NCBI GenBank assembly: GCA_024683775.1
Contig: GCA_024683775.1_4106.1
DNA length: 64,000 nt
Reading direction: 5' to 3' (one strand)
Origin: a phage
A program made the translations under genes and the position numbers. Positions within the stretch are counted from its first letter, which is position 1; every line of letters starts with the position of its first letter. Positions 41,120 to 61,647 of the stretch are shown here, one piece after another. Under the pieces are notes generated by a model. It was not told the DNA's origin, did not search any database, and saw only the letters and a list, made by a program, of their open reading frames with translations.

Positions 41120-41145
41120 GGTTGACTTCGGTCAGCCTTTTTTTA
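41120..41145 (+). terminator. terminator hairpin of the repeated TTGACTTCGGTCA cassette family (copy 1)
   Basis: GGTTGAC-TTCG-GTCAGCC hairpin followed by TTTTTTT. Confidence 0.7.
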
Positions 41146-41180
41146 TGGGACAAATTTATTAATGGTGATACAATGATCTA

Positions 41181-41660
41181 TGTACAATCACAATGACAGT
41201 ACTGGTACTGACAATCTTCCCCTACTTCACTTGAAAATGTAAAGGATAGATGAGCTTTTCATTGTAGCGAACAGCAAAAGAAACCCGTTAGATGTGGGCA
41301 TAGTTTGAACCCCTCACGGCAATGCGGCTGTATAAAGAACCACGTTAGGATAGCTGGTGGTTCCTCGATAGACATATAAGGATAACACCTTACGAATTAT
41401 CTAAGGGAGAGTTATCGAATTTTGTACAGGAAAGTTGCGTCCAAAATTTGAGTACTCACATTAAGTATTTGATTGCATAGATACTTAATGAAGATACACT
41501 ATGTTTAAAAGTGTAGACCGTCATATGAAACTGAAGTAGAGAGAAACAGGATGACCCGCTTTCGCACTCGTTATGAGTAATCTTCAATGCAATAGCTCTG
41601 ATACCATCAGCGTCAAATTTCCCTCCGTGCGGGGGGAAGAAAAATCCCTTCCTCAAATCC
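41181..41660 (+). ncRNA. candidate large structured non-coding RNA (~480 nt)
   Basis: Extended -10 TGaTACAAT at 41166-41174. No plausible ORF. Hairpins GAACCAC...GTGGTTC, CATTAAGTAT...ATACTTAATG and ACACT...AGTGT. Terminal hairpin TTCCCTCC-GTGC-GGGGGGAA. Confidence 0.4.
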
Positions 41661-41678
41661 CGTCAATATTAAAAGTCC

Positions 41679-41707
41679 TTGACAGTTATGATTCATTCGC
41701 GTAGAAT
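41679..41707 (+). promoter_or_regulatory. sigma70-type promoter
   Basis: TTGACA at 41679-41684, 17 bp spacer, TAGAAT at 41702-41707. Confidence 0.55.
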
Positions 41708-41771
41708 ACGTAGTATTAGAAGCGAACAGACATCTCGAAGAGATGGATGATTAACCATTGAGGAATATCTA

Positions 41772-41981
41772 ATGAATTCAGTAATCTTTTTAATTATTGC
41801 TCTTTCACCACAATCTGGTGTACAAATCACCCCAATGAATTCAATGAATCAATGCATTGCAGTACGTGACAGTACGTATGAACAAGTAAACAGCGTTTCA
41901 CTTAGAACAGTTGGTGAAGAATTAATGTGGTGTTACAATAGTAATACTAAAGAAAAACTAATTGTTGGACAAACAGAATGA
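41772..41981 (+). CDS. small secreted or membrane-anchored protein
   Basis: Hydrophobic N-terminus 'SVIFLIIALSPQSG'. Confidence 0.5.
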   Translation: MNSVIFLIIALSPQSGVQITPMNSMNQCIAVRDSTYEQVNSVSLRTVGEELMWCYNSNTKEKLIVGQTE

Positions 41982-42208
41982 GTTATGGTGTTCGTTTTGA
42001 GATTCGTTCTATTGTTATCAATGACGAGAAACAAGCATCGTTGGATGGCGATATACGAGAACTATATCTATCATGTATCCGTGCGAAATCTGAAGCAGAT
42101 GCCTTAGTACAAATGTATAGTTTTAACTTTTCAAATGGATTCTATTTGGTACGAGTTATTGAAGTGAAAAAAGTACTTATTGGTTGTAGCATAGAAGGAT
42201 TAATGTAA
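41978..42208 (+). CDS. hypothetical protein
   Basis: 76 aa ORF. ATGA overlap upstream. Confidence 0.5.
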   Translation: MSYGVRFEIRSIVINDEKQASLDGDIRELYLSCIRAKSEADALVQMYSFNFSNGFYLVRVIEVKKVLIGCSIEGLM

Positions 42209-42209
42209 A

Positions 42210-43004
42210 ATGAGCACTATAGATGAATTGATTCGCCGGAATTCAAAATACTACGACCCATCAGAAATTGTCGGCAACATTACTAAATCTGAGTTCGGCC
42301 CAAATACTCGAAAACTCATTCATGTAATGTCACGTGATGGCTTTAAATGTGATTGTTGTGGTGAATCCAATGTGGTATTCACTTTACATAAGCACAGTAC
42401 TAAAGACCGTTATAAATTCAGACCTTATGTACTTAAAGGGAAACGCCTTGTACGCATGACGTTAGACCATAATGTACTGGACTGTCTTCAGGGCGGTAAT
42501 GATAAAGAGAACATGACCGCATTGTGTGAGGATTGTAACGCATTACGCCAGCATAAGTTTGCTGAGTACAGTGAGTTTAAGCACTGGTATCATAACGCTG
42601 ATCGTTCTATCGAGCCTGACGTTAACTACTGCTTCATTGAGTATATTAAGAATGCTAAAGATACGTACATTCTTAAATCAATGTCACCTATTACAGTGTT
42701 CCCTGAGAATCTATTCAGTACTATGCAGCGTGATTTTAAACGTGGTATCATTAATGCATTCAAACATTTAGACAAAGGTATCAAGCACTTTGAGGTGCAA
42801 TGCTTAAATGAAGGAATGAATCGTTTAGTACAAATTTACATGAAATCATTTATAGGTGTTGACACCGCACGTCTACCAGTATATAATTACTTTATTGAAA
42901 GCGAAGAAGGTGAATCACTTCGTGATTATGGTGAAAGATTTAATAATAAAGTTTTCACTGCAATCGCAAACGAGATTCATTACTATAAACCATATGTAAT
43001 TTAA
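42210..43004 (+). CDS. HNH endonuclease
   Basis: 'CDCCGES...TLDHNVLDCLQGGNDKENMTALCEDCNALR' matches the C-x2-C ... D-H ... N ... C-x2-C pattern. Confidence 0.7.
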   Translation: MSTIDELIRRNSKYYDPSEIVGNITKSEFGPNTRKLIHVMSRDGFKCDCCGESNVVFTLHKHSTKDRYKFRPYVLKGKRLVRMTLDHNVLDCLQGGNDKENMTALCEDCNALRQHKFAEYSEFKHWYHNADRSIEPDVNYCFIEYIKNAKDTYILKSMSPITVFPENLFSTMQRDFKRGIINAFKHLDKGIKHFEVQCLNEGMNRLVQIYMKSFIGVDTARLPVYNYFIESEEGESLRDYGERFNNKVFTAIANEIHYYKPYVI

Positions 43005-43018
43005 TTAGAGGATATATC

Positions 43019-43201
43019 ATGCAAATCATCATTCTTATCGTAGGTATCATTCTTGGTGTATATGGTCACTCCTGGATGAACGAGAAGTTCCCTAATACCC
43101 GTCCTGAGTATTGCAGTACTAATGTATTCCAGAATGGTGAGAAACCAAAGGATAGTATTGGTAAGAAACTGGACAAAGTACTTGACGTAATCAACGAATA
43201 A
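43019..43201 (+). CDS. small membrane-anchored protein
   Basis: 'MQIIILIVGIILGVYGHSW'. Confidence 0.5.
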   Translation: MQIIILIVGIILGVYGHSWMNEKFPNTRPEYCSTNVFQNGEKPKDSIGKKLDKVLDVINE

Positions 43202-43210
43202 GGGTAAAGT

Positions 43211-43411
43211 ATGTTTAAATCAAATACAAATGTTGGTAAGAAGGTTCAATTACTTGAGGATGTATCCACCTTGAGTGGAATTTTCCCAAGAGGTCACATC
43301 ATGACTATTATTGCCGAAACATCCCGTGGGTGGGATTTGGAAGATGCTGATGGTAATCGCATCCTTGAGGCTGGATTCTATGGTCATCGTGAATATAAAA
43401 TCATTGATTAA
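43211..43411 (+). CDS. hypothetical protein
   Basis: 66 aa ORF. Confidence 0.5.
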   Translation: MFKSNTNVGKKVQLLEDVSTLSGIFPRGHIMTIIAETSRGWDLEDADGNRILEAGFYGHREYKIID

Positions 43412-43420
43412 GGATGCAAC

Positions 43421-43504
43421 ATGACTTTAGAGATTGTCTTTGGTATTGTTAGCTTAGTCGTCTGTGTGGGTTGGTTTGGGTATCTGATGATTTTTGGTGA
43501 TTAA
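43421..43504 (+). CDS. 27-aa hydrophobic peptide (not in ORF track)
   Basis: MTLEIVFGIVSLVVCVGWFGYLMIFGD, after an AAGGA RBS. Confidence 0.3.
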   Translation: MTLEIVFGIVSLVVCVGWFGYLMIFGD

Positions 43505-43507
43505 TAC

Positions 43508-43535
43508 TTGACATAAGATATCAGTACTGTATAAT
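43508..43535 (+). promoter_or_regulatory. sigma70-type promoter followed by a long leader hairpin
   Basis: TTGACA at 43508-43513 and TATAAT at 43530-43535. The leader has GCAGTGA...TCACTGC and then a T-run. Confidence 0.55.
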
Positions 43536-43628
43536 GTTTATATCAAAGGGAATGCAGTGAAAGGAAAGACAGCATAATCGTACTCGTCACTGCGTTTCCA
43601 CCCTTTTAAATTAAATGAGGAATTAACT

Positions 43629-43937
43629 ATGTTTCAAACTAACACTCAAGGTTTTGTAATCATCGATTTGAACCAAAACAGCGGTTATTGGATGAAACCT
43701 ACTGACGCATGTATGCAGTTTGATTTTTTAGGTTACAGGATTAGTGTAAGTACTGGTGCTTCTGTACTGCGTGGTGGTTGTATCGTTGAACATCTGGTAA
43801 CAGATCCTGAAGGCCGTGAGTATGAAATCGCAGGTTCAGTACAAGATGCCATTATGTTTGTATGTCAGCGTGAAATGAATAGTTCGAATTCAAATGCACT
43901 GACTCATGCTCTTTCTCAAGAAGTGGAGGTTCGTTAA
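43629..43937 (+). CDS. hypothetical protein
   Basis: 102 aa ORF with a GAGGAA RBS. Confidence 0.55.
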   Translation: MFQTNTQGFVIIDLNQNSGYWMKPTDACMQFDFLGYRISVSTGASVLRGGCIVEHLVTDPEGREYEIAGSVQDAIMFVCQREMNSSNSNALTHALSQEVEVR

Positions 43938-44188
43938 TGAAATATATCGTAGCAGTACTCGTTGCATTTTTACTCACTGCATGTGACGCTTCAACCAAAG
44001 AACGCACAAGTGATTTTATTCTCCCTATTGAATTACAAGAAGCAGGATGTAAGATTTATCGTATGCAAAAGGACGGTGCTGGCGTAACCTTGTATACAGT
44101 TTATTGCCCTAATGCAAATACCAGTACTGGATACAGCAGCGGTAAAACACGAATCAATACTTCAGTGATTAATGGAGTACAACAATGA
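43937..44188 (+). CDS. lipoprotein
   Basis: Signal peptide plus lipobox, 'VAVLVAFLLTAC'. Confidence 0.6.
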   Translation: MKYIVAVLVAFLLTACDASTKERTSDFILPIELQEAGCKIYRMQKDGAGVTLYTVYCPNANTSTGYSSGKTRINTSVINGVQQ

Positions 44189-44553
44189 GCCTTGATACAA
44201 CCCGTGCAACAGATTTATTAACTCGTCTGAATGATGAAGAATATCTTGCTGAAATAAAGTACAAGCTTGAAAAACTGGCACGAAGTGCTGAAGTAATTGA
44301 AGTTAAAGGTCATTTACCAATGGATCAATTCCATACGTTCAAAGAAGATATGGTTTATTATCCAAATGAAATTTGGATTGAGTGGGAACATTGGACTAAC
44401 AAAACTCTACGCATTGAAGGTTATTGTGTAAATTATGAATCTGAACCTGGTGATGTTACAAAAACTCTCTCCATTTGGTGTACAAAAACACATGAACTAG
44501 TTGAGGTGAATTTGAATTATATGAAAGGTTTCCGTTGGGGTGATGTTAAATGA
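44185..44553 (+). CDS. hypothetical protein
   Basis: 122 aa ORF. ATGA overlap upstream. Confidence 0.55.
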   Translation: MSLDTTRATDLLTRLNDEEYLAEIKYKLEKLARSAEVIEVKGHLPMDQFHTFKEDMVYYPNEIWIEWEHWTNKTLRIEGYCVNYESEPGDVTKTLSIWCTKTHELVEVNLNYMKGFRWGDVK

Positions 44554-44825
44554 TTAAAAAACTATTGACAGTTGTCTTTGTATTCTGTACAATGTTTCTT
44601 ACAGCATGTAATGATGACGGCAGGTTTAGTGCAAAAGACTTAGTTCGTCAGGATTGTACATTCACAGGTAAGTCTTTTATTAACGAGTATGAGGTATGTA
44701 CACAATCAGGCCGTATCTGTGGTGGTTGGGAAAAACGTCAGGAGAGATTGTATGTATATGAATGCCCTGGACATCTCAACAAAGTACTAAGCACACACAA
44801 ACTTGTTTATGATAAGGTTGAATAA
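44550..44825 (+). CDS. lipoprotein
   Basis: Signal peptide plus lipobox, 'VVFVFCTMFLTAC'. Confidence 0.6.
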   Translation: MIKKLLTVVFVFCTMFLTACNDDGRFSAKDLVRQDCTFTGKSFINEYEVCTQSGRICGGWEKRQERLYVYECPGHLNKVLSTHKLVYDKVE

Positions 44826-45183: not shown

Positions 45184-45193
45184 GGCGAATATC

Positions 45194-47253: not shown

Positions 47254-47486
47254 TATTGAGTTTTGTAGTTGCATTATTGTTTATGTTCTACCCTACACTA
47301 GTAGCAGTAGCCACTAAACGAAAGCTGGTGGATATCACTACTGTATTCTTGCTAAACGTGGCACTCGTTCTAGTGTCTATTATCATTCCCGTGAGCTTTA
47401 CGGTTATTGATATGGCATCTGTATTACTATTCGTCTTCAGTTATCTTATGCTTATTGAAGAAAAACCTGTTGACAAACGTTTGTAG
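47244..47486 (+). CDS. small membrane protein (3 TM)
   Basis: Hydrophobic throughout. A promoter (TTGACA at 47470) is embedded in its 3' end. Confidence 0.55.
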   Translation: MYLVLSFVVALLFMFYPTLVAVATKRKLVDITTVFLLNVALVLVSIIIPVSFTVIDMASVLLFVFSYLMLIEEKPVDKRL

Positions 47487-47497
47487 TACTGTATAAT
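47470..47497 (+). promoter_or_regulatory. sigma70-type promoter
   Basis: TTGACA at 47470-47475, 16 bp spacer, TATAAT at 47492-47497. AGTACTG occupies the spacer. Confidence 0.55.
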
Positions 47498-47544
47498 GGT
47501 TCTTGTAGTCTGAAACTTAACACTTAAACTTGAGGATATAAAAC

Positions 47545-49060: not shown

Positions 49061-49252
49061 ATGTTGATTTATCAATGTGATAACATTCGTGTTATGCAGC
49101 ATCCCTACTTACAAATCTTTGATGTGCAGCAGTATATGGAAGGTGATGATCCAAGAACCTATGGTCGTAAGTATGATTACTTCACTGTAAAGCAGTGTCG
49201 TGACATCAAAGAAGTACGACAATTAGTTCAAGAACTTCAAAATAAAGGTTGA
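49061..49252 (+). CDS. hypothetical protein
   Basis: ATG at 49061 after a GAGGA RBS. The stop TGA lies inside the cassette TTGACT. Confidence 0.5.
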   Translation: MLIYQCDNIRVMQHPYLQIFDVQQYMEGDDPRTYGRKYDYFTVKQCRDIKEVRQLVQELQNKG

Positions 49253-49278
49253 CTTCGGTCAACCTTTTTTGTTATAAT
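49244..49278 (+). promoter_or_regulatory. terminator/promoter cassette copy 2
   Basis: AAAGGTTGAC-TTCG-GTCAACCTTT hairpin plus T-run. TTGACT at 49249-49254, 18 bp spacer, TATAAT at 49273-49278. Conserved leader ATTTCATCAACTACTGG. Confidence 0.7.
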
Positions 49279-49307
49279 TATTTCATCAACTACTGGGGAT
49301 TTTAATT

Positions 49308-49748
49308 ATGTACGTATATCGTTTTGAACTTAAATTCAGTTATATTGAACCTAACTTAGATCCAGCAAAAACAGTAGGGCCGTTCGCACGGTACTCTTCA
49401 CGATACAGTACTAAAAATGGATTTGACCGTTTGTGCATGACCACGCCTTCGCAATTCCAACCAGAACCAACTGAAGATGGAATCTATTCAATCAAACGTG
49501 GCTGGGCATTTGGCTGTCAGAGTTTGAATGATTTGTTTAAGTTCTTTACTATGGACTTGGGTAAATTACATCGTGCAGGGTTTGCTGTATCAGTATATGA
49601 AGTTCCTGATAATCATGTTGACATTGGTCGTAGTCAGGTTCAGTACTATTGTGGTAGTGCCAATCTGGTTCGTATCATGTCAGTGAGAGAAGCAAAGGAT
49701 GAGTACCGCCAAAGTAAAAGAGTAATACATGAGGCTGTATATGGATAA
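49308..49748 (+). CDS. hypothetical protein
   Basis: 146 aa ORF. Confidence 0.55.
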   Translation: MYVYRFELKFSYIEPNLDPAKTVGPFARYSSRYSTKNGFDRLCMTTPSQFQPEPTEDGIYSIKRGWAFGCQSLNDLFKFFTMDLGKLHRAGFAVSVYEVPDNHVDIGRSQVQYYCGSANLVRIMSVREAKDEYRQSKRVIHEAVYG

Positions 49749-50721: not shown

Positions 50722-50946
50722 ATGAAATATCTAGTACTAGTACTGCTATTCTTGAGTACTGTTGTATGTGCTAAACCAAAGTATCATGTAGTGTGTATCA
50801 ACGAGATGGAAGGGTATACTGAAACATATAAGAACCATATTGTTGAAGTTGCAGCCCAAGGTTCCTATGGGACCATCATCTTCCTTAAGAACAATGTGAT
50901 TGTTCAGTACAAAAAAGATTCAAATTGTAAAGTGACTAAAAATTGA
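50722..50946 (+). CDS. secreted Cys-bracketed small protein family member
   Basis: Signal peptide 'MKYLVLVLLFLSTVVCA'. Contains 'VVCINE' and 'SNCKVTKN'. Confidence 0.5.
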   Translation: MKYLVLVLLFLSTVVCAKPKYHVVCINEMEGYTETYKNHIVEVAAQGSYGTIIFLKNNVIVQYKKDSNCKVTKN

Positions 50947-51016
50947 TCTAGATCAATTTTTCAGATATTCTCTGTAAATAATAGCAGTACAGAACATTAT
51001 TTTACGGAGGTGTAAT

Positions 51017-51253
51017 ATGGAAACTATAATCATCATATGTGCGTTGTTTGCATTTTTGGTAATGTGGTCACCAACATTCATTGCATATAAAATGAAAAAT
51101 AAAAATGCAGAAGCAATTATGTACGTAAACTTATGTTGCATACTAACTTATGGAATACTTTTATTCTTTACTGAATTTACATTAATCCCAGTAGTAGTTT
51201 GTTCATCAATGTTTATTTGGTTGTTTCTGCTTTATGAATCTATTAAAAAATAA
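51017..51253 (+). CDS. small membrane protein (2-3 TM)
   Basis: Hydrophobic helices. Confidence 0.55.
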   Translation: METIIIICALFAFLVMWSPTFIAYKMKNKNAEAIMYVNLCCILTYGILLFFTEFTLIPVVVCSSMFIWLFLLYESIKK

Positions 51254-51307
51254 AAGATATAGGGTTGGTAATATGCCATCCCTTTTACTTTATGTGGGGT
51301 TTAATTA

Positions 51308-52408: not shown

Positions 52409-52416
52409 TATAAATA
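52409..52416 (+). promoter_or_regulatory. exact T4-type late promoter consensus TATAAATA
   Basis: TATAAATA lies 33 nt upstream of the ATG at 52449, downstream of a sigma70-like promoter (TATAAT at 52369-52374). Confidence 0.3.
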
Positions 52417-52448: not shown

Positions 52449-52832
52449 ATGGTTGATAAATGGAATAAGAAAGATCCATCGCATGATGTGGATATTTCTG
52501 GAATTGATAATGCACATAAGCATAAGTATCTTGATTCACTAGGTCTACTAAAGCCTGACCAAAGTCTTGCACATGATCGTCCTTCACGTGAAAAAGCTTT
52601 CAGTCTAGAATCACTAGGCCATGAATTGAATCGTGTATTTGAAGATCATCCAATTTATGTACGTGATATCATTGAGAAACTTAAAGTGACTCCTAAAGAG
52701 CACTTCAAGGCAACAGTACACGCAGCATTCCGTGCACTACATGAAGCACTAAAGAAAACTCATAACCTTCGCAAGATTCATGATGACATCGTGAACTCTA
52801 TTGAAGGCGAAAAACATAAGTTTAAAAAATAA
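52449..52832 (+). CDS. hypothetical protein sharing the 'Y..SLGLL' motif with 54195..55688
   Basis: 'KHKYLDSLGLLKPDQ' compares with 'LRYVNSLGLLNATQ'. Both also share a '...KALQAVPKEE / KLKVTPKEH' segment. Confidence 0.55.
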   Translation: MVDKWNKKDPSHDVDISGIDNAHKHKYLDSLGLLKPDQSLAHDRPSREKAFSLESLGHELNRVFEDHPIYVRDIIEKLKVTPKEHFKATVHAAFRALHEALKKTHNLRKIHDDIVNSIEGEKHKFKK

Positions 52833-52838
52833 TTAAAA

Positions 52839-52872
52839 GGGGTTGACTTCAGTCAGCCCTTTGTCGTATAAT
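52839..52872 (+). promoter_or_regulatory. terminator/promoter cassette copy 3
   Basis: GGGGTTGAC-TTCA-GTCAGCCC hairpin. TTGACT at 52843-52848, 18 bp spacer, TATAAT at 52867-52872. Confidence 0.65.
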
Positions 52873-52919
52873 ATTTTCATCAAGTGATACAAAATACAAA
52901 CAACGTGAGGTATTAAATT

Positions 52920-53033
52920 ATGCAAGGTACTAAATTCATCATCGCTGCCCTAATCGCTGCTGTTGTAGTGGGTACAGTATGTTATTCAATTGACACCTAT
53001 ATCAATACACCTAGTGTTGAACAAACCAAATAA
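52920..53033 (+). CDS. 37-aa membrane peptide (not in ORF track)
   Basis: MQGTKFIIAALIAAVVVGTVCYSIDTYINTPSVEQTK, after a GAGG RBS. Confidence 0.35.
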   Translation: MQGTKFIIAALIAAVVVGTVCYSIDTYINTPSVEQTK

Positions 53034-53597: not shown

Positions 53598-53617
53598 TGG
53601 TATAGTACAGTGAAAAT

Positions 53618-53649
53618 AGGGTTGACTTCGGTCAACCTTTATATATAAT
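53618..53649 (+). promoter_or_regulatory. terminator/promoter cassette copy 4
   Basis: AGGGTTGAC-TTCG-GTCAACCTTT hairpin. TTGACT at 53622-53627, 16 bp spacer, TATAAT at 53644-53649. Confidence 0.65.
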
Positions 53650-53662
53650 GGAAGAAATAAAC

Positions 53663-54190
53663 ATGGAACGTTGGAAATTAATTCCTGATTATGACTATTC
53701 AATTTCTGATCATGGAAGAGTAAGAAACGAACAAACTGGATATATAAGTTGTGGATTTAAAAATAAAGATGGGTATGTGAAGGTCGATTTGTATCGCAAT
53801 TCTGTGAAAAATAGAAAGGCGATTCATCGACTAGTAGCTGAAGCATTTTTACCACCACCCACACAGAAACAGTTACAGTGGGCAAGTAGAACAAAGAAAA
53901 AAGTTGTTCACATAAACCATAAAGATTGTAATAGAAGTAACAATCACTATTTGAATTTGGAATGGAACACAGCATCTGAAAACGTACTATATTCTTATTC
54001 ACATGGTAACGCAACAACTAATCGTGGTGCTGCTGTGTTGACATGGGAAATTGTAAGAGAAATAAGAAAAGATTATAATGATAATTATAATGATGTGATA
54101 GAATATGCACGAGAAAATTGTAATAAATACCGTGTATGTAAAAAAACAATACGTCGTATTTTATACAATCAAACATGGATAGAGGATTAA
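53663..54190 (+). CDS. HNH-type homing endonuclease (NUMOD4-like plus HNH_3-like)
   Basis: 'MERWKLIPDYDYSISDHGRVRN', 'IHRLVAEAFLPPP' and 'INHKDCNRSNNHYLNLEW'. The track start at 53648 overlaps the -10 element. Confidence 0.7.
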   Translation: MERWKLIPDYDYSISDHGRVRNEQTGYISCGFKNKDGYVKVDLYRNSVKNRKAIHRLVAEAFLPPPTQKQLQWASRTKKKVVHINHKDCNRSNNHYLNLEWNTASENVLYSYSHGNATTNRGAAVLTWEIVREIRKDYNDNYNDVIEYARENCNKYRVCKKTIRRILYNQTWIED

Positions 54191-54194
54191 AAAT

Positions 54195-55688
54195 ATGCCA
54201 CAAGATAATGGGGATATGAAACATCGTAATGGTGGACTAGTACAACACTCGGATAAATGGGCCGACCGAAATCGTCGCAAAAATAGTTATCAAGCAGGAC
54301 AAGGTTCACGTGGTTCACGTAATCAAGGGACAGGTTTAGCTGGTAAGGCAAACGCAGAAGCAGGTGAAGTTAAGAGTACTGAGAACATGACTGAGCTAGA
54401 AAAGCTACGTTATGTTAACTCATTAGGTCTTCTTAACGCAACACAGAAACAACGCCTTGCTGATATGGAACGTGCTGAGAAAGAACAAGCAGTTCCTAAA
54501 GAAGAACCAAAACCAGAAGCTCCTAAAGCAGCTAACCCTGTTAAAGAGTTATCTGATAACTTAGGTAAGATCTTTGCTAACAAACCACAGTTGATTCAGG
54601 GTATTGTCAAAGCACTACAGGCAGTTCCTAAAGAAGAACTCAAAGGTAAAGCACAAGCTGTACTTGATGCAATGAAAGGTAATAAGAGCACTGAACCCAC
54701 TGAAGTATTCAGTACTATCATGCGTGCACTTGAAGGTACACACAAAGAAGATTCGAAAGAACCTGAACAGGGTGAAGCAAGTCTTGATGGTATTCTTAAA
54801 ACTTTTGATAGTATTGGTAAAGCAGACCGTGCTAATGCCCAGCAAGTCAAGAATGTACTGGCTAAACTTGAAAACCGTTTAGAAGGTAAAGACGATAAGG
54901 TTAAGCTCGTATCAGATGCAGTTAACAGTGCACTTAAATCTTATGTACAAGGTGAGAAAAGTCGCTTCGTAACAGCTATGGATGCTGCATTCAACACTAT
55001 GAAAAAGTATGAAGCAGAACATGGTGAGAAAGTGACACCTGATGGATATCTACTACGTAAAGATGAAGAAGGTGCAGTTGAACAGAAAGATGTTGAGCCT
55101 GAGCAAGAAGATCTACCTGATACCGTTGATATGGATGGATACATTCATCGTCCTGAGATGGAAGAGTTTGGGTCAGATAAAGAAGGTTTTGAACATGCAA
55201 TGGCAGTATATAAAGCATTAGTTAAAAATCCAGATTATGCTAACCGTTTTGTTGACGAGTTTGATAGTGCATGGAATAACTACAAAGACAAAGGTTATGA
55301 CTTCCCTGCTGAAGCTGCATTCTTTGAACTTGGTAAACTATTAGCTAAACATGGAATTGACGTTGGTTCATCTGATTCTGACGGTATGGAAGAAGAACAT
55401 CTTGAAATGACTGATAAATCAATTCATGAACTTCAAAAGTTAATGATGTGGATATCCGAGATTGGTAAAAAAGCAGGTGCTGATAGTAAAAGTATCAACA
55501 AAAATATTAGTTGGATTAAAGATAATGTTGGTAACAATGCTCGTAAACTTCAAAAGGCTTGGGCTGATTTAGTAAATGGTGCAGATGATGTTGACATTGA
55601 ATCACCAGAAGCATATGAGTATGCACTAACTACACTTGATAACTCATTCAAAGAGTACGACCGTGGTGTTGGAAAGGATAAAAAATAA
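54195..55688 (+). CDS. large acidic hypothetical protein
   Basis: 497 aa. Gly/Arg/Asn/Gln-rich N-terminus followed by a long Glu/Lys/Asp-rich helical region. Confidence 0.6.
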   Translation: MPQDNGDMKHRNGGLVQHSDKWADRNRRKNSYQAGQGSRGSRNQGTGLAGKANAEAGEVKSTENMTELEKLRYVNSLGLLNATQKQRLADMERAEKEQAVPKEEPKPEAPKAANPVKELSDNLGKIFANKPQLIQGIVKALQAVPKEELKGKAQAVLDAMKGNKSTEPTEVFSTIMRALEGTHKEDSKEPEQGEASLDGILKTFDSIGKADRANAQQVKNVLAKLENRLEGKDDKVKLVSDAVNSALKSYVQGEKSRFVTAMDAAFNTMKKYEAEHGEKVTPDGYLLRKDEEGAVEQKDVEPEQEDLPDTVDMDGYIHRPEMEEFGSDKEGFEHAMAVYKALVKNPDYANRFVDEFDSAWNNYKDKGYDFPAEAAFFELGKLLAKHGIDVGSSDSDGMEEEHLEMTDKSIHELQKLMMWISEIGKKAGADSKSINKNISWIKDNVGNNARKLQKAWADLVNGADDVDIESPEAYEYALTTLDNSFKEYDRGVGKDKK

Positions 55689-55694: not shown

Positions 55695-55730
55695 AAAAGG
55701 TTGACTTCGGTCAACCTTTTTTTGTAAATA
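55695..55730 (+). promoter_or_regulatory. terminator/promoter cassette copy 5 (degenerate -10)
   Basis: AAAAGGTTGAC-TTCG-GTCAACCTTTT hairpin. TTGACT at 55701-55706 and TAAATA at 55725-55730. Confidence 0.55.
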
Positions 55731-55759
55731 TTGTAGAGGGTTTTATAAGAGGTAATGCA

Positions 55760-56011
55760 ATGTTTAAATATGTTTTATTTTCACTTGTATTGTTTACTGA
55801 TATAGTTTATAGTACTGAATACCAGTGCTCTATTGCTAGACAGGAGTTTAGAAACGGTGAGTTCTATACCAAGTCTTACACTAGAGGATTGGTACATGAC
55901 AATAATAAAACTATAGGGTTCAATGCATTTGATAACAAAGATCGATATACGTCTGGAATACTATCTGAACGTAAGTCGGATGTAATAGGTATCGAGCATG
56001 AATTCCGGTGA
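55760..56011 (+). CDS. small secreted protein
   Basis: Signal peptide 'MFKYVLFSLVLFTDIVYS'. Confidence 0.5.
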   Translation: MFKYVLFSLVLFTDIVYSTEYQCSIARQEFRNGEFYTKSYTRGLVHDNNKTIGFNAFDNKDRYTSGILSERKSDVIGIEHEFR

Positions 56012-56372
56012 CACAGTTGCAATGTGTAATGATATTGAGAGTACTAAGAAAGTATATACTAATGGTGAAAATACCTTTAGATTCCACAATCTTACTACCA
56101 ATGAAAGTTTATACTTCTACAACTGTAAAGAGTTCATTAAACCTGTGGATAACTCATGTGATATGCCGGAGCCAAAAGCTGCTGTATGTGAGGAACCACA
56201 ATCCAAAGCTGACAAAGATTCAAAAGATAAGAAAGACAAAGCTGACAAATTGGATAAAAAAGAAAACAAAAAGAAAGCTAAAGATGATAAAGATAAAAAG
56301 TCCCCTAAGCCAAATCCATTTGAAAAGCCAAAGAATGAAAAGCCAAAACCAGACATGACATGTAAAATATAA
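55998..56372 (+). CDS. protein with a Cys-bracketed domain and a Lys/Asp-rich low-complexity tail
   Basis: 'AMCNDIE...TFRFHN...YNCKEF' followed by 'KADKDSKDKKDKADKLDKKENKKKAKDDKDKK'. Overlaps the upstream ORF by 14 nt. Confidence 0.5.
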   Translation: MNSGDTVAMCNDIESTKKVYTNGENTFRFHNLTTNESLYFYNCKEFIKPVDNSCDMPEPKAAVCEEPQSKADKDSKDKKDKADKLDKKENKKKAKDDKDKKSPKPNPFEKPKNEKPKPDMTCKI

Positions 56373-56379
56373 AAGAAAA

Positions 56380-56412
56380 GGGTTGACTTCGGTCGGCCCT
56401 TTTTGCTATAAT
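56380..56412 (+). promoter_or_regulatory. terminator/promoter cassette copy 6
   Basis: GGGTTGAC-TTCG-GTCGGCCC hairpin plus T-run. TTGACT at 56383-56388, 18 bp spacer, TATAAT at 56407-56412. Leader CATTTCATCAACTACTGGAGG. Confidence 0.7.
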
Positions 56413-56438
56413 CATTTCATCAACTACTGGAGGCAAAC

Positions 56439-56852
56439 ATGTTAAAAGTTATTTTCCGTTCTATCAGTTCATTACTTCTTATGATTAGTTCAGTTTCTTA
56501 TGCAAATGAAGTATCTGACTTGTTTGAGAAGAATTACCCAACTGCACAAGAGATGGGTGTTTTAAAATGCAAGCTAACTTCGTACAACATCATCGGCAGT
56601 AAACTTGTACTGGAACATGAACGTAGTACACCAATCCCTCTAGTAGAAGAAGGCAGTACCTTTAGCTTCAAGTACGGGGTGAACGTAACATCTGGTGTAA
56701 TGAACAATGTTGATGCAGAGACTGGTTCAACATGGAGTACTAGCGGTAAAGATGTGTTTCATCGTATGCGTGAAAATGGTAAACTGAAGTACGTATATGA
56801 AAGTTCATTCATGAAACGTGTATTCATTATAAAAAATTGTGTACCAGCATAA
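56439..56852 (+). CDS. secreted Cys-bracketed protein family member
   Basis: Signal peptide '...LLLMISSVSYA'. Contains 'LKCKLTS', 'STFSFKY' and 'KNCVPA'. Confidence 0.55.
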   Translation: MLKVIFRSISSLLLMISSVSYANEVSDLFEKNYPTAQEMGVLKCKLTSYNIIGSKLVLEHERSTPIPLVEEGSTFSFKYGVNVTSGVMNNVDAETGSTWSTSGKDVFHRMRENGKLKYVYESSFMKRVFIIKNCVPA

Positions 56853-57838: not shown

Positions 57839-57839
57839 G

Positions 57840-58184
57840 ATGTATAATTTAAATTTAATATCATATATCATAACAACACTGTTTACTTTCTATGCCTTTG
57901 TTGGTATACTCCTACTGTACTTTAAATTTTATAAACTTTTTGATCGTTTTTATCCGTCATTAGAACATGAATTCTTATTAGTGATGTACATATGTCTAAC
58001 GTTTATGTCTACATTTTTCACTGCATCTGATGGTATCATTGGTATTAAAGCTGAAGAACCAAATGGGAGTACGCTTGTTGCCTTTATTCTGGTAGGATTT
58101 TTCAGTACTTATATTACCTTTATTTCAGGATGTACCGTGATTGATTATCTTGTGAAATTACGAGATAAAATGCCAAATCGATAG
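57840..58184 (+). CDS. small 3-4 TM membrane protein family, array 1 copy 3
   Basis: C-terminus 'LVKLRDKMPNR'. Confidence 0.6.
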   Translation: MYNLNLISYIITTLFTFYAFVGILLLYFKFYKLFDRFYPSLEHEFLLVMYICLTFMSTFFTASDGIIGIKAEEPNGSTLVAFILVGFFSTYITFISGCTVIDYLVKLRDKMPNR

Positions 58185-58193
58185 GGGATTGCT

Positions 58194-58451
58194 ATGTTTG
58201 CATTGCGTAATAAAAATACAAAAGAGATTCTGTGTATCTCAACAGTATGGGATTGTGCAGGAAGTGAAATGATTCTCGAAGAAGGTTCAGGTGATTGTGT
58301 TTATGTTGTTCAGGATCGTCGCGAACTGGAATCATTACTTGACGAATTTAATGCTGGTGGAAATCCTAAAAGTACTCAATTCCCTGAGATCAGGAATCCA
58401 GCACCACCAGGCTCTTATGAAATTCTACAACTGTGGGAGATGGATAAGTAA
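58194..58451 (+). CDS. hypothetical protein (possible paralog of 60313..60600)
   Basis: 'MFALRNKNTKE...VYVVQDRRELESLLDEF' compares with 'MYALYNKEKKQ...YYVLDDVSVLQRLLERS'. Confidence 0.5.
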   Translation: MFALRNKNTKEILCISTVWDCAGSEMILEEGSGDCVYVVQDRRELESLLDEFNAGGNPKSTQFPEIRNPAPPGSYEILQLWEMDK

Positions 58452-58831
58452 TGCGTCAAATGCACAAAGTAACCGAGCTAAACAAGCGTCTGATTAAACA
58501 ATCAATGTTTGAGGATAAAGAGTCTTACTATAACTTCAAACGTGCTGTAGAGGCTGCTATCCACATTCAGAAGCTTAAAGATAGTGGATGTATTATTCTC
58601 GAAAATGGTTCTGACGTTGTTACTGATGACTTCAGTGTAGCGTTTGATGTTTCACCTGATGGTTCGCTATCAATGCCACGCTTAGGGACTGGTGACATGA
58701 CTGTGTGGGTAGGTTTCACTATGGGGAATGTACCAGGCACGGTGTATGTAGATGATGCTGAGTTGAAAGAAAGCTTCAAAAACTTATCGCATCTTGAACC
58801 ACAATACGCACATGAAATGAATTTATTTTGA
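58451..58831 (+). CDS. hypothetical protein
   Basis: 126 aa ORF. TAATG overlap upstream. Confidence 0.55.
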   Translation: MRQMHKVTELNKRLIKQSMFEDKESYYNFKRAVEAAIHIQKLKDSGCIILENGSDVVTDDFSVAFDVSPDGSLSMPRLGTGDMTVWVGFTMGNVPGTVYVDDAELKESFKNLSHLEPQYAHEMNLF

Positions 58832-58832
58832 G

Positions 58833-58860
58833 TTGACAAACTCATTCAGTACTGTATAAT
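58833..58860 (+). promoter_or_regulatory. sigma70-type promoter followed by a leader hairpin
   Basis: TTGACA at 58833-58838 and TATAAT at 58855-58860. Leader hairpin GGGGATGA-ACTTC-TCATCCCC at 58870-58890. Confidence 0.6.
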
Positions 58861-58907
58861 GTTTATCAAGGGGATGAACTTCTCATCCCCACAATCGAGG
58901 AATTGTC

Positions 58908-59462
58908 ATGATTACTTTTAAGAAAACTGCTAACCACATCCATGAGATCTACATTAACGGTCACAAAGCTGGCCTTCTTCGTTTACTCGCCCATCATCCG
59001 AATATTACCGTATCTGATAATGAACCTAAAGATTGGCGTGTATTTTTCTTTGGAAAGTACAGTGATTTTCAAGTATCAAACCTGAAGAACATTCGTTCAG
59101 TATGCACGTTAACTGAAATTAAAGAAAAGTTAACCAAAGCATTGAAAACTAATCCAGATAGTGTTCTTCCACCTGATAACTTTGTAGAGAAAGGATATGC
59201 CTTAGCTCATTTCAAAGATGGTACTATTCAATCTATCAGTACTGAATATGAATATCAATGGACTGAGTACTTCACTTATGGATCGCGTAATACATTGATG
59301 GCTTCACGTAGTAAATTGGAAGAAGTACTGACTCGTATGAATGAACGCGAGCGTCAATTTTATGACAAACCAGAAATGTGGAGTTCAACTTACATTGACC
59401 GTATTGACTATGTTATTATGACTCCAATCTTTGACACTGCTTACTATGATTCTTTGAAATAA
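58908..59462 (+). CDS. hypothetical protein
   Basis: 184 aa ORF with a GAGGAA RBS. Confidence 0.6.
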   Translation: MITFKKTANHIHEIYINGHKAGLLRLLAHHPNITVSDNEPKDWRVFFFGKYSDFQVSNLKNIRSVCTLTEIKEKLTKALKTNPDSVLPPDNFVEKGYALAHFKDGTIQSISTEYEYQWTEYFTYGSRNTLMASRSKLEEVLTRMNERERQFYDKPEMWSSTYIDRIDYVIMTPIFDTAYYDSLK

Positions 59463-59473
59463 GGATAACTTAT

Positions 59474-59650
59474 ATGAAACTACGTACTCGTAATCGACTG
59501 ATGGATGCACTGTACCATGAACAGCTTTCACTGAATGAAGTGAAGCGTCAGTTAATGTACACATATCTGTTACCCGCTCGCATTGCAAAACAACGTGCTA
59601 AAGAATTGCTGAAAGAAGCAATCGAGTACTGGGAATCTGATTCGTACTAA
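59474..59650 (+). CDS. 58-aa hypothetical protein (not in ORF track)
   Basis: AAGGA RBS upstream. Begins MKLRTRNRLMDALYHEQLSLNEVKRQL. Confidence 0.4.
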   Translation: MKLRTRNRLMDALYHEQLSLNEVKRQLMYTYLLPARIAKQRAKELLKEAIEYWESDSY

Positions 59651-59678
59651 TTGTCACGTTAATTAAGTGAGGCGATAA

Positions 59679-59930
59679 ATGAAAATTTTATTAGTTCTAA
59701 TACTACTAATTGTTTTACCATTTACGTTAGTATCCCCTGAACTTGCATGGAATGTGTTTGTGTACTTACTATGTACTATTGTAGTAAATGGTATCTTGTT
59801 CTTAGTTCTATTCATAAATGGAATAGGACACGGTGGAGGATGGACCAGTACTGCTGATATTGTACATAAAACCACTATGTCTTTATTTGTAGTGTGGAAT
59901 TTATTCTGGACTTGGTTTGTGTTCTTCTAA
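59679..59930 (+). CDS. small membrane protein (3 TM)
   Basis: Hydrophobic helices. GAGG RBS. Confidence 0.55.
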   Translation: MKILLVLILLIVLPFTLVSPELAWNVFVYLLCTIVVNGILFLVLFINGIGHGGGWTSTADIVHKTTMSLFVVWNLFWTWFVFF

Positions 59931-59939
59931 TTAAAAAAT

Positions 59940-60311
59940 ATGAATATAGATTTGAAAGGTGCAACCCGAACTGTCATACTCATTGGGGAATATGCTATCA
60001 AGATTCCAACCTTTAAAAGTTGGAAGCTATTCTTAACAGGGATGATAGCTAACCTCAATGAACGTTCTTGGATGCAGTACTCCAAGCGTAGTGATAGTGG
60101 TATCTGCCCTACGTTGTGGTCATCATGTACTGGACTAGTAACTGTACAGAAACGTTGTAAGCCAGTACAACATAGGGGTTTATTTTGGGTGGAGTTGTGT
60201 GCTTTAGCATTGGATTCAGAGTTGAGTACTGACTTCTTCTATTCAGATGCGAAGCCAGAAAACTTTGGGTATCTGGGTGGTAAGTTAGTTAAACTTGATT
60301 ATGGAGATTAA
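59940..60311 (+). CDS. mini protein-kinase-like protein (tentative)
   Basis: 'GEYAIKIP' is VAIK-like. 'NERSW' could supply the alpha-C Glu. 'SDAKPENFG' is a D-x-K-P-x-N catalytic loop. 'VKLDYGD' is DFG-like and sits at the very C-terminus. Confidence 0.45.
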   Translation: MNIDLKGATRTVILIGEYAIKIPTFKSWKLFLTGMIANLNERSWMQYSKRSDSGICPTLWSSCTGLVTVQKRCKPVQHRGLFWVELCALALDSELSTDFFYSDAKPENFGYLGGKLVKLDYGD

Positions 60312-60312
60312 T

Positions 60313-60600
60313 ATGTACGCACTGTATAATAAAGAAAAGAAACAATTTGCTAAGGTTGAAAAATCGATTGATACATTTGGCATGTTTAAGTACTGTATTG
60401 TGACGGACCCATATGCTAACTTGTATTACGTTCTTGATGACGTATCAGTACTGCAACGATTGCTTGAACGTTCCAAAAGCCAATGCCAAGGTATCCATGA
60501 TGGTTCAACTTATGAAACACCTGAGTGTTCCTATGGCTATCTGGATGGGTATGAGATTGTGAAGTTGGGTGCATTGTTGAATAAATGGATTAAACAATGA
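60313..60600 (+). CDS. hypothetical protein
   Basis: ATG at 60313 directly after the upstream stop. Confidence 0.5.
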   Translation: MYALYNKEKKQFAKVEKSIDTFGMFKYCIVTDPYANLYYVLDDVSVLQRLLERSKSQCQGIHDGSTYETPECSYGYLDGYEIVKLGALLNKWIKQ

Positions 60601-61010
60601 AGAAGTGTATCACGTGTAATATTGAAAAAGACATTAGTGAATTTGGTATAAGAAGTGATACTGGGAAACATAGAAATACATGCAAAGGTTGTAGTAATAT
60701 TACCAGTAAGAGAACCAGAAATAAAAAAACTGATGTAAAAACACTTGAAGAAATCAAAAGAAAAAATAAAGATTTCATGACCAGAGTTAAATCATTTTAT
60801 GGTTGTAGTGTTTGTATGATGAAGTATCCAGAATGTTTAGACTTTCACCATCTTGACCCTAATACCAAAGAACATACACCAAGTTCTATGTTCAGTAAAA
60901 GTCGAGAATCTATCAAAGATGAAATTCGAAAGTGTATGATTCTTTGTTCTAATCACCATCGCATGGTACATTCTGGTAGACTATGTTTGATTGAAAGAAA
61001 AAAGGGTTGA
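60597..61010 (+). CDS. HNH endonuclease
   Basis: 'CSVCMMKYPECLDFHHLDPNTKEH' and 'CSNHHRMVHSG'. The stop TGA lies inside the cassette TTGACT. Confidence 0.8.
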   Translation: MKKCITCNIEKDISEFGIRSDTGKHRNTCKGCSNITSKRTRNKKTDVKTLEEIKRKNKDFMTRVKSFYGCSVCMMKYPECLDFHHLDPNTKEHTPSSMFSKSRESIKDEIRKCMILCSNHHRMVHSGRLCLIERKKG

Positions 61011-61036
61011 CTTCGGTCAGCCCTTTTTGCTATAAT
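61004..61036 (+). promoter_or_regulatory. terminator/promoter cassette copy 7
   Basis: GGGTTGAC-TTCG-GTCAGCCC hairpin plus T-run. TTGACT at 61007-61012, 18 bp spacer, TATAAT at 61031-61036. Confidence 0.7.
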
Positions 61037-61064
61037 CATTTCATCGAAACGAGAGGATGAATAC

Positions 61065-61580
61065 ATGACACGCATTAACTTAGTACACGTTAAAGAACTT
61101 GCTGACCAACATCTGATGGCTGAATATCGTGAACTCCCACGTGTGTTTGGTGCTGTACAAAAACATGTTCAAGCACGTAAGCGAGTCCGTGATTTCAAAA
61201 TTAACAGTACTTACCTGTTAGGTTCAGGTCATGTAACATTCTTCTACAACAAGTTATTGTACTTACAGAAGCGTCATATTGATATTGTTAACGAATGTTT
61301 GCGTCGTGGGATGAAGATTCAAAACACTGAAGTAAACGACATTAGCGGATTCCCTACTGAGTTTTGTAATGACTACGTACCATCGGAGTCAGAGATTAAA
61401 ATGTCTCGTGAGCGTTTGATTGAGAAGCTACAGATGAAGCCTACGTGGTATAAGTTTACTGATGTTGAACGCCCACAGTACGTTAAAGATATGCAGGACG
61501 TAAGTAGTAATATAGAATCTAGTACTGATATGTTCGACGAAATTGAAGAACAAATCAAAGATGAAATGAATAATTATTAA
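61065..61580 (+). CDS. denV: pyrimidine-dimer DNA glycosylase / AP lyase (T4 endonuclease V homologue) with an acidic C-terminal extension
   Basis: The N-terminus '[31 protein letters not shown]' is nearly identical to T4 EndoV and keeps Thr2 and Glu23. Also has '[10 protein letters not shown]', 'ECLRRGM' and 'PTWYKF'. Confidence 0.9.
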
Positions 61581-61586
61581 AGGTAA

Positions 61587-61619
61587 GGGTTGACTTCGGT
61601 CAGCCCTTTTTGCTATAAT
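61587..61619 (+). promoter_or_regulatory. terminator/promoter cassette copy 8
   Basis: GGGTTGAC-TTCG-GTCAGCCC hairpin plus T-run. TTGACT at 61590-61595, 18 bp spacer, TATAAT at 61614-61619. Leader ATTTCATCAACTGATGAGG. Confidence 0.7.
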
Positions 61620-61647
61620 TATTTCATCAACTGATGAGGATAACGAA

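Follow-up and report, generated by a model that had tools for sequence, protein, structure and literature searches.

The stretch of DNA analysed here (the window) comprises 64,000 nucleotides of contig GCA_024683775.1_4106.1 and derives from an Asteriusvirus (121Q-like) jumbo coliphage with 99.2% identity to Escherichia phage EC.P1. Identity over the region is 98-99% with phages fEgEco12, vB_Ec-M-J, WPEC3 and BF17 and ~85-88% with 121Q, PBECO4 and G17, and these relatives are jumbo phages of 348-386 kb that belong to the genus Asteriusvirus or stand near it. All genes lie on the + strand and transcription is rightward throughout, and the strong sigma-70-like sites of the window (at least 11 of 12 consensus positions) are likewise all on the + strand (37/37). 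A phage sigma-factor gene (Sigma70_r2/r3) at 40146-41111 directly precedes the first copy of a repeated intergenic cassette of ~40-70 bp, the subject of this work, in which a candidate terminator hairpin and a candidate promoter overlap. The genes of the cassette region are mostly small open reading frames (ORFs) of unknown function, among which Pfam-type assignments identified one as an HNH_3/NUMOD4 endonuclease and one as denV (Pyr_excise). A hydrophobic 19-mer was found in ~22 of 55 ORFs (~40%) in a crude scan. A first-pass annotation, made from the sequence, had likened the cassettes to elements of some T4-type phages and described the genes between them as mostly small secreted proteins, membrane proteins, HNH endonucleases and denV; the small ORFs were borne out, but "mostly secreted or membrane" overstates a hydrophobic share of ~40%, and an Asteriusvirus is not strictly a T4-type phage.

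The core of the cassette has the layout GGGTTGAC-TTCG-GTCAGCCC. Searching the window for GGGTTGACTTCGGTCAGCCC with up to three mismatches returned eight sites, at 41119, 49246, 52840, 53619, 55698, 56380, 61004 and 61587, all on the + strand, and no such site was present in 100 dinucleotide-preserving shuffles of the window. A looser search of the 64 kb, using an 18-mer with up to four mismatches, yielded no ninth copy. A repeat finder independently recovered the identical eight-copy family together with a five-copy family of 68 nt that reaches through the -10 hexamer and the leader. A chance or low-complexity artefact was rejected, as zero copies are expected and the repeat finder agrees. All eight copies that had been listed in the first-pass annotation were thus recovered, on the + strand and 0-3 nt from the positions given there. 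They occupy 20.5 kb (41.1-61.6 kb), with none in the remaining 43 kb, and the units from one cassette to the next hold ~23, 9, 2-3, 2, 2, 13 and 1 genes.

The placement of the cassettes relative to the neighboring genes is tight (Table 1). The stop codon of the upstream gene lies 6-21 nt before the stem or overlaps it; the overlapping cases are 49246, where the TGA within TTGAC (49250-49252) is the stop codon of ORF 49061-49252, and 61004, where ORF 60597-61010 ends on the TGA within the hairpin TTGAC (61008-61010). Copy 1 begins 7 nt past the stop of the sigma-factor gene. A-rich runs, such as GAAAGAAAAAA and AAAATAAA, stand directly 5′ of the hairpin.

Table 1. Cassette copies, adjoining ORFs and a second promoter family in the window
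Feature	Coordinates	Strand	Details
Copy 1, predicted terminator only	41119..41145	+	Hairpin 41119-41138 (GGGTTGACTTCGGTCAGCCT), T7; -13.9 kcal/mol
Copy 2	49241..49310	+	Hairpin 49246-49265, T6, TGn, -10 TATAAT 49273-49278, spacer 18, leader TATTTCATCAA, ATG 49308
Copy 3	52836..52922	+	Hairpin 52840-52859 (loop TTCA), TTTG, -10 TATAAT 52867-52872, leader ATTTTCATCAA, ATG 52920 (37-aa ORF)
Copy 4	53616..53665	+	Hairpin 53619-53638, TTT, -10 TATAAT 53644-53649, spacer 16, ATG 53663
HNH_3 + NUMOD4 endonuclease gene	53663..54190	+	Domain match; downstream of copy 4
Copy 5	55695..55762	+	Hairpin 55698-55717 (A-T closing AGG...CCT), T7, degenerate -10 TAAATA 55725-55730, ATG 55760
Copy 6	56376..56441	+	Hairpin 56380-56399 (U-G wobble variant GTCGGCCC), T5, TGC, -10 TATAAT 56407-56412, leader CATTTCATCAA, ATG 56439
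ORF labelled HNH endonuclease in relatives	60597..61010	+	No Pfam match here; sits between the upstream stop codon and the copy 7 A-tract
Copy 7, consensus	60998..61067	+	AAAAAA, hairpin 61004-61023, T5, TGC, -10 TATAAT 61031-61036, leader CATTTCATCGA, ATG 61065 (denV, Pyr_excise); -19.0 kcal/mol
Copy 8, consensus	61583..61650	+	Hairpin 61587-61606, T5, TGC, -10 TATAAT 61614-61619, leader TATTTCATCAA, ATG 61648 (P-loop NTPase-like ORF)
Second promoter family	22343-22374, 22764-22795, 43508-43539, 47470-47501, 58833-58864; related 24105-24156		TTGAC(A/T)-N8-CAGTACTG-TATAATG; no hairpin; perfect or near-perfect sigma-70 hexamers

Folding of the eight copies gave energies of -12.1 to -19.0 kcal/mol with z scores of -3.6 to -6.1. 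The stem is 8 bp long with four or five G-C pairs, and A-U pairs contributed by the flanking A and T runs lengthen the helix to as much as 13 bp. The loop is TTCG in seven of the eight copies and TTCA in 52840, and the T-run comprises 5-7 T in six copies and only TTT in 52840 and 53619. A hairpin, TTCG loop and T-run had been ascribed to every copy; the fold holds for all eight, but one loop and two T-runs depart from that description. Pairing is kept despite base changes, with A1-T20 replacing G1-C20 in 49246 and 55698, G-U closing pairs in 41119 and 53619, and a U-G wobble in 56380, and the prevalent pair at stem position 4/17 is T-G, which RNA tolerates as a wobble but which is mismatched in DNA. 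The copies therefore carry what an intrinsic terminator is expected to have in sequence: a stem-loop with a U-tract, on the coding strand, after a stop codon. A terminator scanner called only one of the eight on the + strand (49244) and two others as reverse-strand readings; it takes the A and T runs as part of the stem and so under-calls these cassettes, and folding energies were therefore used instead. The same hairpins are labelled rho-independent terminators in the records of relatives, namely G17 (ARNold, -13.5 to -17 kcal/mol) and Munch. In the supplement to the description of phage CBB, GGGTTGACTTCGGTCAGCCC plus a T-run appears as the predicted terminators Torf515/518/520 (-16.8 kcal/mol), and the promoter table of the same paper omits the hairpin sites (PMC5259590). 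Scanned in full against Rfam at gathering thresholds, the window yielded seven tRNAs at 21.6-28.9 kb and nothing at the cassettes.

The other half of the cassette has the geometry of a promoter. TTGACT forms part of the 5′ arm, and TATAAT follows at 18 bp in 49246, 52840, 56380, 61004 and 61587 and at 16 bp in 53619; in copy 55698 the hexamer at 18 bp is TAAATA, and copy 41119 has no suitably spaced -10 hexamer. This is as the first-pass annotation had it, which placed the -35 element of a restarting promoter inside the terminator stem with the -10 hexamer 16-18 bp on, degenerate in one copy and missing from the first, and its shared leader, (C/T)ATTTCATC(A/G)A, was likewise found in all four copies for which it had been described (49244, 56380, 61004 and 61587). 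Copy 52840 has a one-base variant of the leader with an extra T, ATTTTCATCAA. What remains of the loop, together with the 3′ arm and the T-run, makes up precisely the 17-18 bp of the promoter spacer, and a TGn of the extended -10 type precedes the hexamer in 49246, 55698, 56380, 61004 and 61587. An ATG stands 13-47 nt after the -10 with a GAGG-like ribosome-binding site (RBS) before it in seven of the eight copies, so that a transcript starting ~7 nt past the -10 would be free of the hairpin and would carry a leader of 20-50 nt ending in the RBS. The proximal UP-subsite consensus was reportedly given as AAAAAARNR by Estrem and colleagues in 1999, and the AAAAAAGGG stretch 5′ of the -35 fits it.

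The cassette is not confined to the window. The 348.5-kb genome of 121Q has all seven of its exact copies (7/7) in one 14-kb stretch homologous to the cassette region, and an eighth copy with the outer stem TGG/CCA lies elsewhere in that genome. BLAST searches with 36 or 50 nt of the cassette matched 177 phage records, with 6-15 places per Rak2/121Q-like genome, and extended to KVP40-like Vibrio phages, Aeromonas phage 65 and its relatives, Brochothrix phage A9, and ~150-kb phages of Pectobacterium, Enterobacter and Cronobacter. Cassette positions are conserved across Asteriusvirus, and the denV-adjacent cassette is conserved even in CBB. Exact hairpins in IMG/VR amounted to 46 distinct copies, of which 38 have a -10 matching at least five of six positions at 16-18 bp, compared with 3% of control positions, and 37 have TGn. 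When bacteria and archaea were scanned with one genome per species (185,579 species), the exact hairpin plus TTT occurred only 26 times, Acinetobacter, Exiguobacterium, Vibrio and Bacteroidetes being among the matches; two of these 26 copies had a good -10 at 16-18 bp and one had TGn, and the hairpin was seated at gene ends, usually as a plain terminator. Judged from this context, the hairpin alone is an ordinary predicted terminator in bacteria and the promoter-bearing version is a phage feature.

Copies in unrelated viral contigs bear on how the design came about. There the core TTGAC-TTCG-GTCAR is enclosed by other complementary outer stems (GCC/GGC, AGC/GCT, GAG/CTC and GGC/GCC) and followed by a T-run and a -10, which indicates that the design arose more than once. 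The outer stem co-varies as an RNA helix would; the covariation count over fuzzy matches is contaminated by reverse-strand readings of near-palindromes and is used qualitatively only.

Gene content around the cassettes was compared between the window and EC.P1, fEgEco12, WPEC3, BF17, UB and 121Q for events in 41-64 kb, where EC.P1 is collinear with the window. The site of copy 8 (61587) is a hot spot with at least four alleles, at which BF17, 121Q, UB, G17 and WPEC3 carry differing gene blocks of 2.1-4.1 kb. In BF17 a 2760-bp block of three genes is held between 66-bp direct cassette repeats, the first 36 bp of which are identical, and the window corresponds to the BF17 left flank plus one cassette plus the BF17 right flank. 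In 121Q, too, direct cassette repeats of 66 bp stand on either side of the block. 121Q, UB and G17 each have two blocks in succession, which differ in cargo and lie between cassettes; the left-hand cassette of 121Q and UB is only half present, as AAAGGGTTGACTTCGGT followed by TACAC..., with the break at the loop/3′ arm. The WPEC3 block is different again, and its right-hand cassette keeps the stem but has ACTA as its loop.

Cassettes also mark the edges of other events. 121Q lacks the segment 60585-60990, which holds the HNH-annotated ORF, and BF17 has an unrelated ORF in its place; in each of the three alleles the end falls at the A-tract or hairpin of cassette 61004 (~60990). The segment 53640-54246, which consists of the HNH_3/NUMOD4 gene and 54191-54246, is present in the window and EC.P1 and corresponds to 107 bp in fEgEco12, WPEC3 and BF17; its left edge is the first base after hairpin 53619-53638 and its right edge lies 50 nt into the structural gene. 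In 121Q and UB everything from 52873/52883 to 54246/54294 is replaced, with the left edge just past the -10 of cassette 52840. A comparable pattern was seen at ~43.53 kb, where 121Q, UB and BF17 have an extra gene of ~320-330 bp, flanked in 121Q by two similar ~49-bp copies of the second repeated promoter, TTGACA-N8-CAGTACTG-TATAATG, and in BF17 by a 19-bp identical repeat, indicating that repeated promoters without a hairpin also mark indels. The first-pass annotation had taken the absence of cassette-bounded indels among relatives as a result that would speak against its proposal; such indels were found, for example at 61587 and 53640.

The hairpins are preserved even where their surroundings are not. 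At six orthologous cassette positions compared between the window and 121Q, the hairpin is identical at 17-20 of 20 bases, and five of these positions show poor conservation in the 150 bp on one or both sides (unrelated, 0.56-0.63, at four positions; 0.71 at one). A junction was scored as broken where at least one of the six relatives loses homology or has an indel of 100 bp or more, breaks being located by flank mapping, and on this measure 4/7 junctions at cassettes were broken compared with 9/49 elsewhere (one-sided Fisher p = 0.043). Breakpoint enrichment at cassettes is thus real but modest. Relative to 121Q, the cassette region contains 8-9 indels, and none of 40 bp or more occurs in 1-19 kb or 28-43.5 kb.

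These properties recall the promoter-early stem-loops (PeSLs) of phages RB49 and phi1, which are defined by an AT-rich tract, a near-consensus sigma-70 promoter, a G...C stem-loop, a Shine-Dalgarno sequence and an ATG, with the stem-loop in one of five positions and one subclass overlapping the -35 (PMC2839356). We consider it likely that the cassettes are PeSL-type composite terminator/promoter units in the early-gene region of Asteriusvirus, a reading that the first-pass annotation had offered and that is favored by the stable hairpins, by the terminator labels in relatives and by the promoter geometry, found in 38/46 viral and 2/26 bacterial copies. Of the PeSL features that can be computed, the window cassettes have the promoter and stem-loop in one element (7/8 copies, 41119 being a stem-loop only), the AT-rich stretch, the Shine-Dalgarno sequence and ATG, clustering in a plastic region, and a position at indel ends. 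The taxonomic scope of the PeSLs is Tevenvirinae, and the window is 99% identical to Asteriusvirus-group phages, a difference that concerns scope and not mechanism. An accompanying claim, that the cassettes insulate single-gene "morons", did not survive, since the units hold from 1 to ~23 genes and the sole lone gene is denV.

In the mechanism that we propose, the upstream RNA, GGGUUGAC-UUCG-GUCAGCCC, would fold into a C(UUCG)G-capped hairpin lengthened by the flanking A-run and U-run, and the hairpin with its U-tract would act as an intrinsic terminator or attenuator and, in addition, as a 3′ end protector. The same DNA would serve as a host sigma-70 promoter, with the A-tract and GGG as a proximal UP-like subsite, TTGACT as the -35 and TGn-TATAAT as an extended -10, and would restart transcription ~7 nt downstream. 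As this restart lies past the hairpin, the new mRNA would be free of it. Each unit of 1 to ~23 genes would in this way be shielded from read-through and be given its own strong early promoter. The near-identical direct copies of 36-66 bp would offer portable homology to the phage recombination system, and this homology could produce deletions, insertions and swaps of gene blocks with their ends in or at a cassette. The terminating, restarting and buffering functions are all what we infer from the sequence, as is the recombination mechanism from the indel pattern, which is itself a direct result of the comparison.

Several observations weigh against this interpretation. Copy 1 is without a promoter and copy 5 has a poor one, the 18-bp spacer of most copies is slightly suboptimal, and the weak T-runs (TTT) of 52840 and 53619 may make weak terminators. 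The stop codon lies 0-21 nt from the stem in all eight copies, so that ribosomes ending the upstream gene could modulate termination and, while translating, reduce it. Genomes of this phage group carry 7-10 cassettes, compared with ~50 in RB49/phi1. Part of the gene flux has no link to a cassette: 50834-51303 is swapped for 112 bp in 121Q and UB, 59651-59939 is missing in UB, and an extra gene adds 339 bp at the 62418/62486 junction in 121Q and UB, all with no cassette, and 56131-56850, a 718-bp segment that holds copy 6, is exchanged in 121Q and UB for 1401 bp with a cassette of its own, both edges being intragenic and away from any cassette. The breakpoint enrichment is modest, with non-independent events at one hot spot, and the two cassette-edge events at 53640 and ~60990 involve HNH-type genes, which are movable by homing. 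Lastly, the cassette-free tRNA zone at 19-28 kb is equally plastic, which indicates that cassettes are one route to plasticity and not the only one.

Some of these points can be read differently, with the cassettes as purely regulatory units, their place at indel edges incidental because only intergenic-ended indels survive, and HNH homing endonucleases as the driver of the flux. The HNH_3/NUMOD4 insertion also replaces the first ~17 codons of the neighboring structural gene, as co-conversion would, ORF 60597-61010 bears an HNH label in relatives, and an "endonuclease" is annotated in the WPEC3 block at 61587; moreover, four regional indels have neither a cassette nor a flanking repeat, the tRNA zone is as plastic, and the enrichment reaches only p = 0.04. 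We nevertheless regard this explanation as unlikely given the alleles at 61587, where 66-bp direct cassette repeats flank the BF17 and 121Q blocks and the short allele holds exactly one cassette, a signature of recombination between repeats, where at least four different cargo blocks occupy the space between the same cassettes, and where 121Q and UB retain a half cassette broken inside the hairpin. The second repeated promoter family, moreover, behaves alike at ~43.5 kb. Homing endonucleases are a real contributor to the events at 53640 and ~60990, but they cannot explain the repeat-flanked alleles at 61587. The very precise breakpoints, at the first base past the stem (53640) and inside the loop (121Q and UB), and the HNH-type genes that adjoin two cassettes would instead suit a hairpin recognized or cleaved as DNA, perhaps as a cruciform, by a dedicated phage recombinase or endonuclease, with cassettes that are actively mobile, and the same possibility was raised for PeSL stems by Arbiol et al. 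(PMC2839356). This is very improbable: the T-G at stem position 4/17 favors a structure formed in RNA, where it can pair as a wobble, over one in DNA, where it is a mismatch; apart from the hairpin itself, neither terminal inverted repeats nor target-site duplications are present; cassette positions are conserved across Asteriusvirus (that of denV even in CBB); and the crossovers at 61587 can be placed anywhere in 36 identical bp. An element resembling a transposon or a miniature inverted-repeat transposable element was rejected on the same lack of repeats and duplications and on the conserved positions in relatives.

The palindrome TTGAC-N4-GTCAA also invites comparison with host FNR/CRP-family sites, in which case the cassettes would be oxygen-responsive promoters and the hairpin irrelevant. 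The E. coli FNR consensus, TTGAT-N4-ATCAA, is close to the cassette palindrome. TTGACttcgGTCAA appears verbatim among the FnrL sites in Rhodobacter (PMC2908626), which is a resemblance only. In most copies, however, one FNR half-site is spoiled (GTCAG). The outer GGG/CCC pairs co-vary, and the loop is strongly TTCG (qualitatively, with TACG and GNRA variants in relatives), unlike an unconstrained FNR spacer. A T-run always follows on the transcribed strand, the bacterial hairpin is a plain gene-end terminator, and the center of the palindrome, counted from the sequences, lies near -30 and not at the -41.5 of class II FNR promoters. An FNR-type operator was rejected on loop, outer stem, T-run and position, and we give this explanation almost no credence.

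A wider reading of the composite terminator/promoter unit goes beyond Asteriusvirus. The unit occurs in Rak2/121Q-like jumbo phages, KVP40-like Vibrio phages, Aeromonas phage 65, ~150-kb enterobacterial phages and Brochothrix phage A9, the last with a Gram-positive host. Tentatively, and with considerable doubt, AAAGGG-TTGAC-TTCG-GTCAG-CCC-TTTT(T)-TGn-TATAAT might be a minimal terminate-and-restart module, shared or repeatedly evolved across phage lineages, which hands the terminating RNA polymerase to the embedded promoter and also serves as a linker for the exchange of gene blocks between unrelated phages. The handover would proceed by post-termination retention of the polymerase and re-initiation, giving the overlap a role beyond compactness, and it is the near-identity of the unit from genome to genome that would suit it as a linker.

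Other regulatory features were noted around the cassettes. The T4-type late-promoter box TATAAATA occurs a single time in the window, at 52409-52416, 32 nt upstream of a virion structural gene (52449-52832). A second late box follows hairpin 53619 (…CCTTTTCTTTATACTATAAATATAG…) in fEgEco12 (L001 14622-14680, matching window 53619-54195), WPEC3 and BF17, where the hairpin is succeeded by TATACT/TATAAATA (TATACTATAAATA) and then by the virion structural gene that corresponds to 54195-55688 of the window. The HNH insertion in the window and EC.P1 removed this second box. The ~630 bp after the first hairpin (41139-41771) have no annotated gene in fEgEco12, EC.P1, BF17 or 121Q, and WPEC3 alone annotates three ORFs of 117-132 nt there. 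This interval holds an CAGTACTG site (41197) and a TTGACA-17-TAGAAT promoter at 41679, has no Rfam match, and by its sequence could be a non-coding RNA or a regulatory region. Cassette copies without an RBS and ATG were found outside the homologous region in 121Q (L051 1967) and in the Rak2-like contigs L024 and L030; they continue into a conserved stretch (…ttgctatacttatctcattggcagata…tagcccatagggtgc…) and may drive a small non-coding RNA and not a protein gene. Elsewhere in the window, a perfect TTGACA-17-TATAAT lies at 589-650, its -10 flanked by hairpin arms AGAGTGCGTTT…AAACGCACTCT plus T6, and at 30298-30370 a terminator-like hairpin (GGCTGATTCATAATGAATCGGCC plus T7) begins only a few bases beyond a TTGACA-18-TATACT, an arrangement that predicts a transcript of only ~30 nt.

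The 8-bp palindrome CAGTACTG, which forms part of the second promoter family, is itself abundant. It occurs 41 times in the 64 kb (for example at 464, 4257, 22357, 43522, 58847 and 61973), compared with 0.85 expected and a maximum of six in 100 shuffles; AGTACT occurs 171 times in the window, and AGTACTGA is the most frequent 8-mer overall. The palindrome is found in all three reading frames and in intergenic DNA, which points to a signal at the DNA level. Its density of ~0.6 per kb is alike in 121Q, UB, BF17, WPEC3 and fEgEco12, and it is frequent in Rak2/CBB/GAP32-like loci too, but 12 kb of a KVP40-like Vibrio phage contained none. Such palindrome enrichment is unusual in a phage, and a literature search for the octamer CAGTACTG returned primer matches only. 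The hyperplastic zone at 19.2-28 kb, which has no hairpin cassettes, is associated with seven tRNA genes (21649-28854) and shows ~10 indels relative to 121Q, including a 3-kb block at 24273-27292. The annotation of the window lacks tRNA-Gly and tRNA-Leu, both of which are present in 121Q, and just downstream of tRNA-Ser, at 21827-22148, a 161-nt unit is duplicated in tandem (77% identity).

In Rak2/121Q-like jumbo phages ~80% of genes have no known function. The cassettes would extend the PeSL idea, a regulatory cassette that doubles as a recombination linker, from T4-like phages to this group. For Asteriusvirus or Rak2-like phages, neither composite cassettes of this kind nor recombination resembling that of PeSLs is described in the literature searched; the hairpins are already known as terminators, and what is new is the PeSL-type composite in another phage group. 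For annotation, GGGTTGAC-UUCG-GUCAGCCC would mark both a transcript end and an early transcript start where current records give a terminator only. The contrast between phage and bacterial copies, with the promoter in 83% and 8%, respectively, makes a clean example of a terminator built into a promoter, and as a natural insulator of ~45 bp that combines a terminator, UP-like tract, -35 and extended -10, the cassette may be of interest for phage engineering and synthetic biology.

C(UUCG)G tetraloop hairpins reportedly occur in intergenic regions of phage T4, according to Tuerk and colleagues in 1988. In hairpin type the cassettes are like such C(UUCG)G terminators and like Torf515/518/520 of CBB, which is identical in sequence, but both of those descriptions treat a terminator only, the embedded promoter and the link to recombination not being noted there. 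The closer likeness is to the RB49/phi1 PeSLs (Arbiol et al. 2010, PMC2839356), which are also composite intergenic elements with a subclass that overlaps the -35, and which sit at indel ends in hyperplastic regions, with crossovers mapped even inside the loop. In both systems the plastic regions consist of small unknown ORFs and the indels between close relatives end in the elements, crossovers within the loop included. The cassettes differ in residing in an Asteriusvirus jumbo phage and not in Tevenvirinae, in numbering 7-10 as opposed to ~50, and in having a single near-invariant hairpin in fixed register with the promoter, whereas the stems of the PeSLs are variable and take five positions. 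Unlike the PeSLs, moreover, the hairpin here is also paired with a T4-type late promoter (in fEgEco12, WPEC3 and BF17). Terminator activity, promoter activity and mini-circle formation were shown experimentally for the RB49/phi1 elements (PMC2839356), whereas for the cassettes terminator and promoter activity are predicted.

The PeSL concept has also been extended to the phage pairs T4/PST and KVP40/nt-1 by Comeau et al. (2014, PMC4122927). As given there, the nt-1/KVP40 stem-loop consensus A3-4 G3-loop-C3 T3-4 fits the AAAGGG...CCCTTTT of the cassettes, while the nt-1 -35 consensus TTGYVH mismatches TTGACT and the stem-loop stands just upstream of the promoter, a comparison made by description only. 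In the KVP40-like Vibrio phage D482, in turn, the identical hairpin, GGTTGACTTCGGTCAGCC, stands downstream of the DNA ligase gene, and after it come a T-run and a -10-like box rich in A/T.

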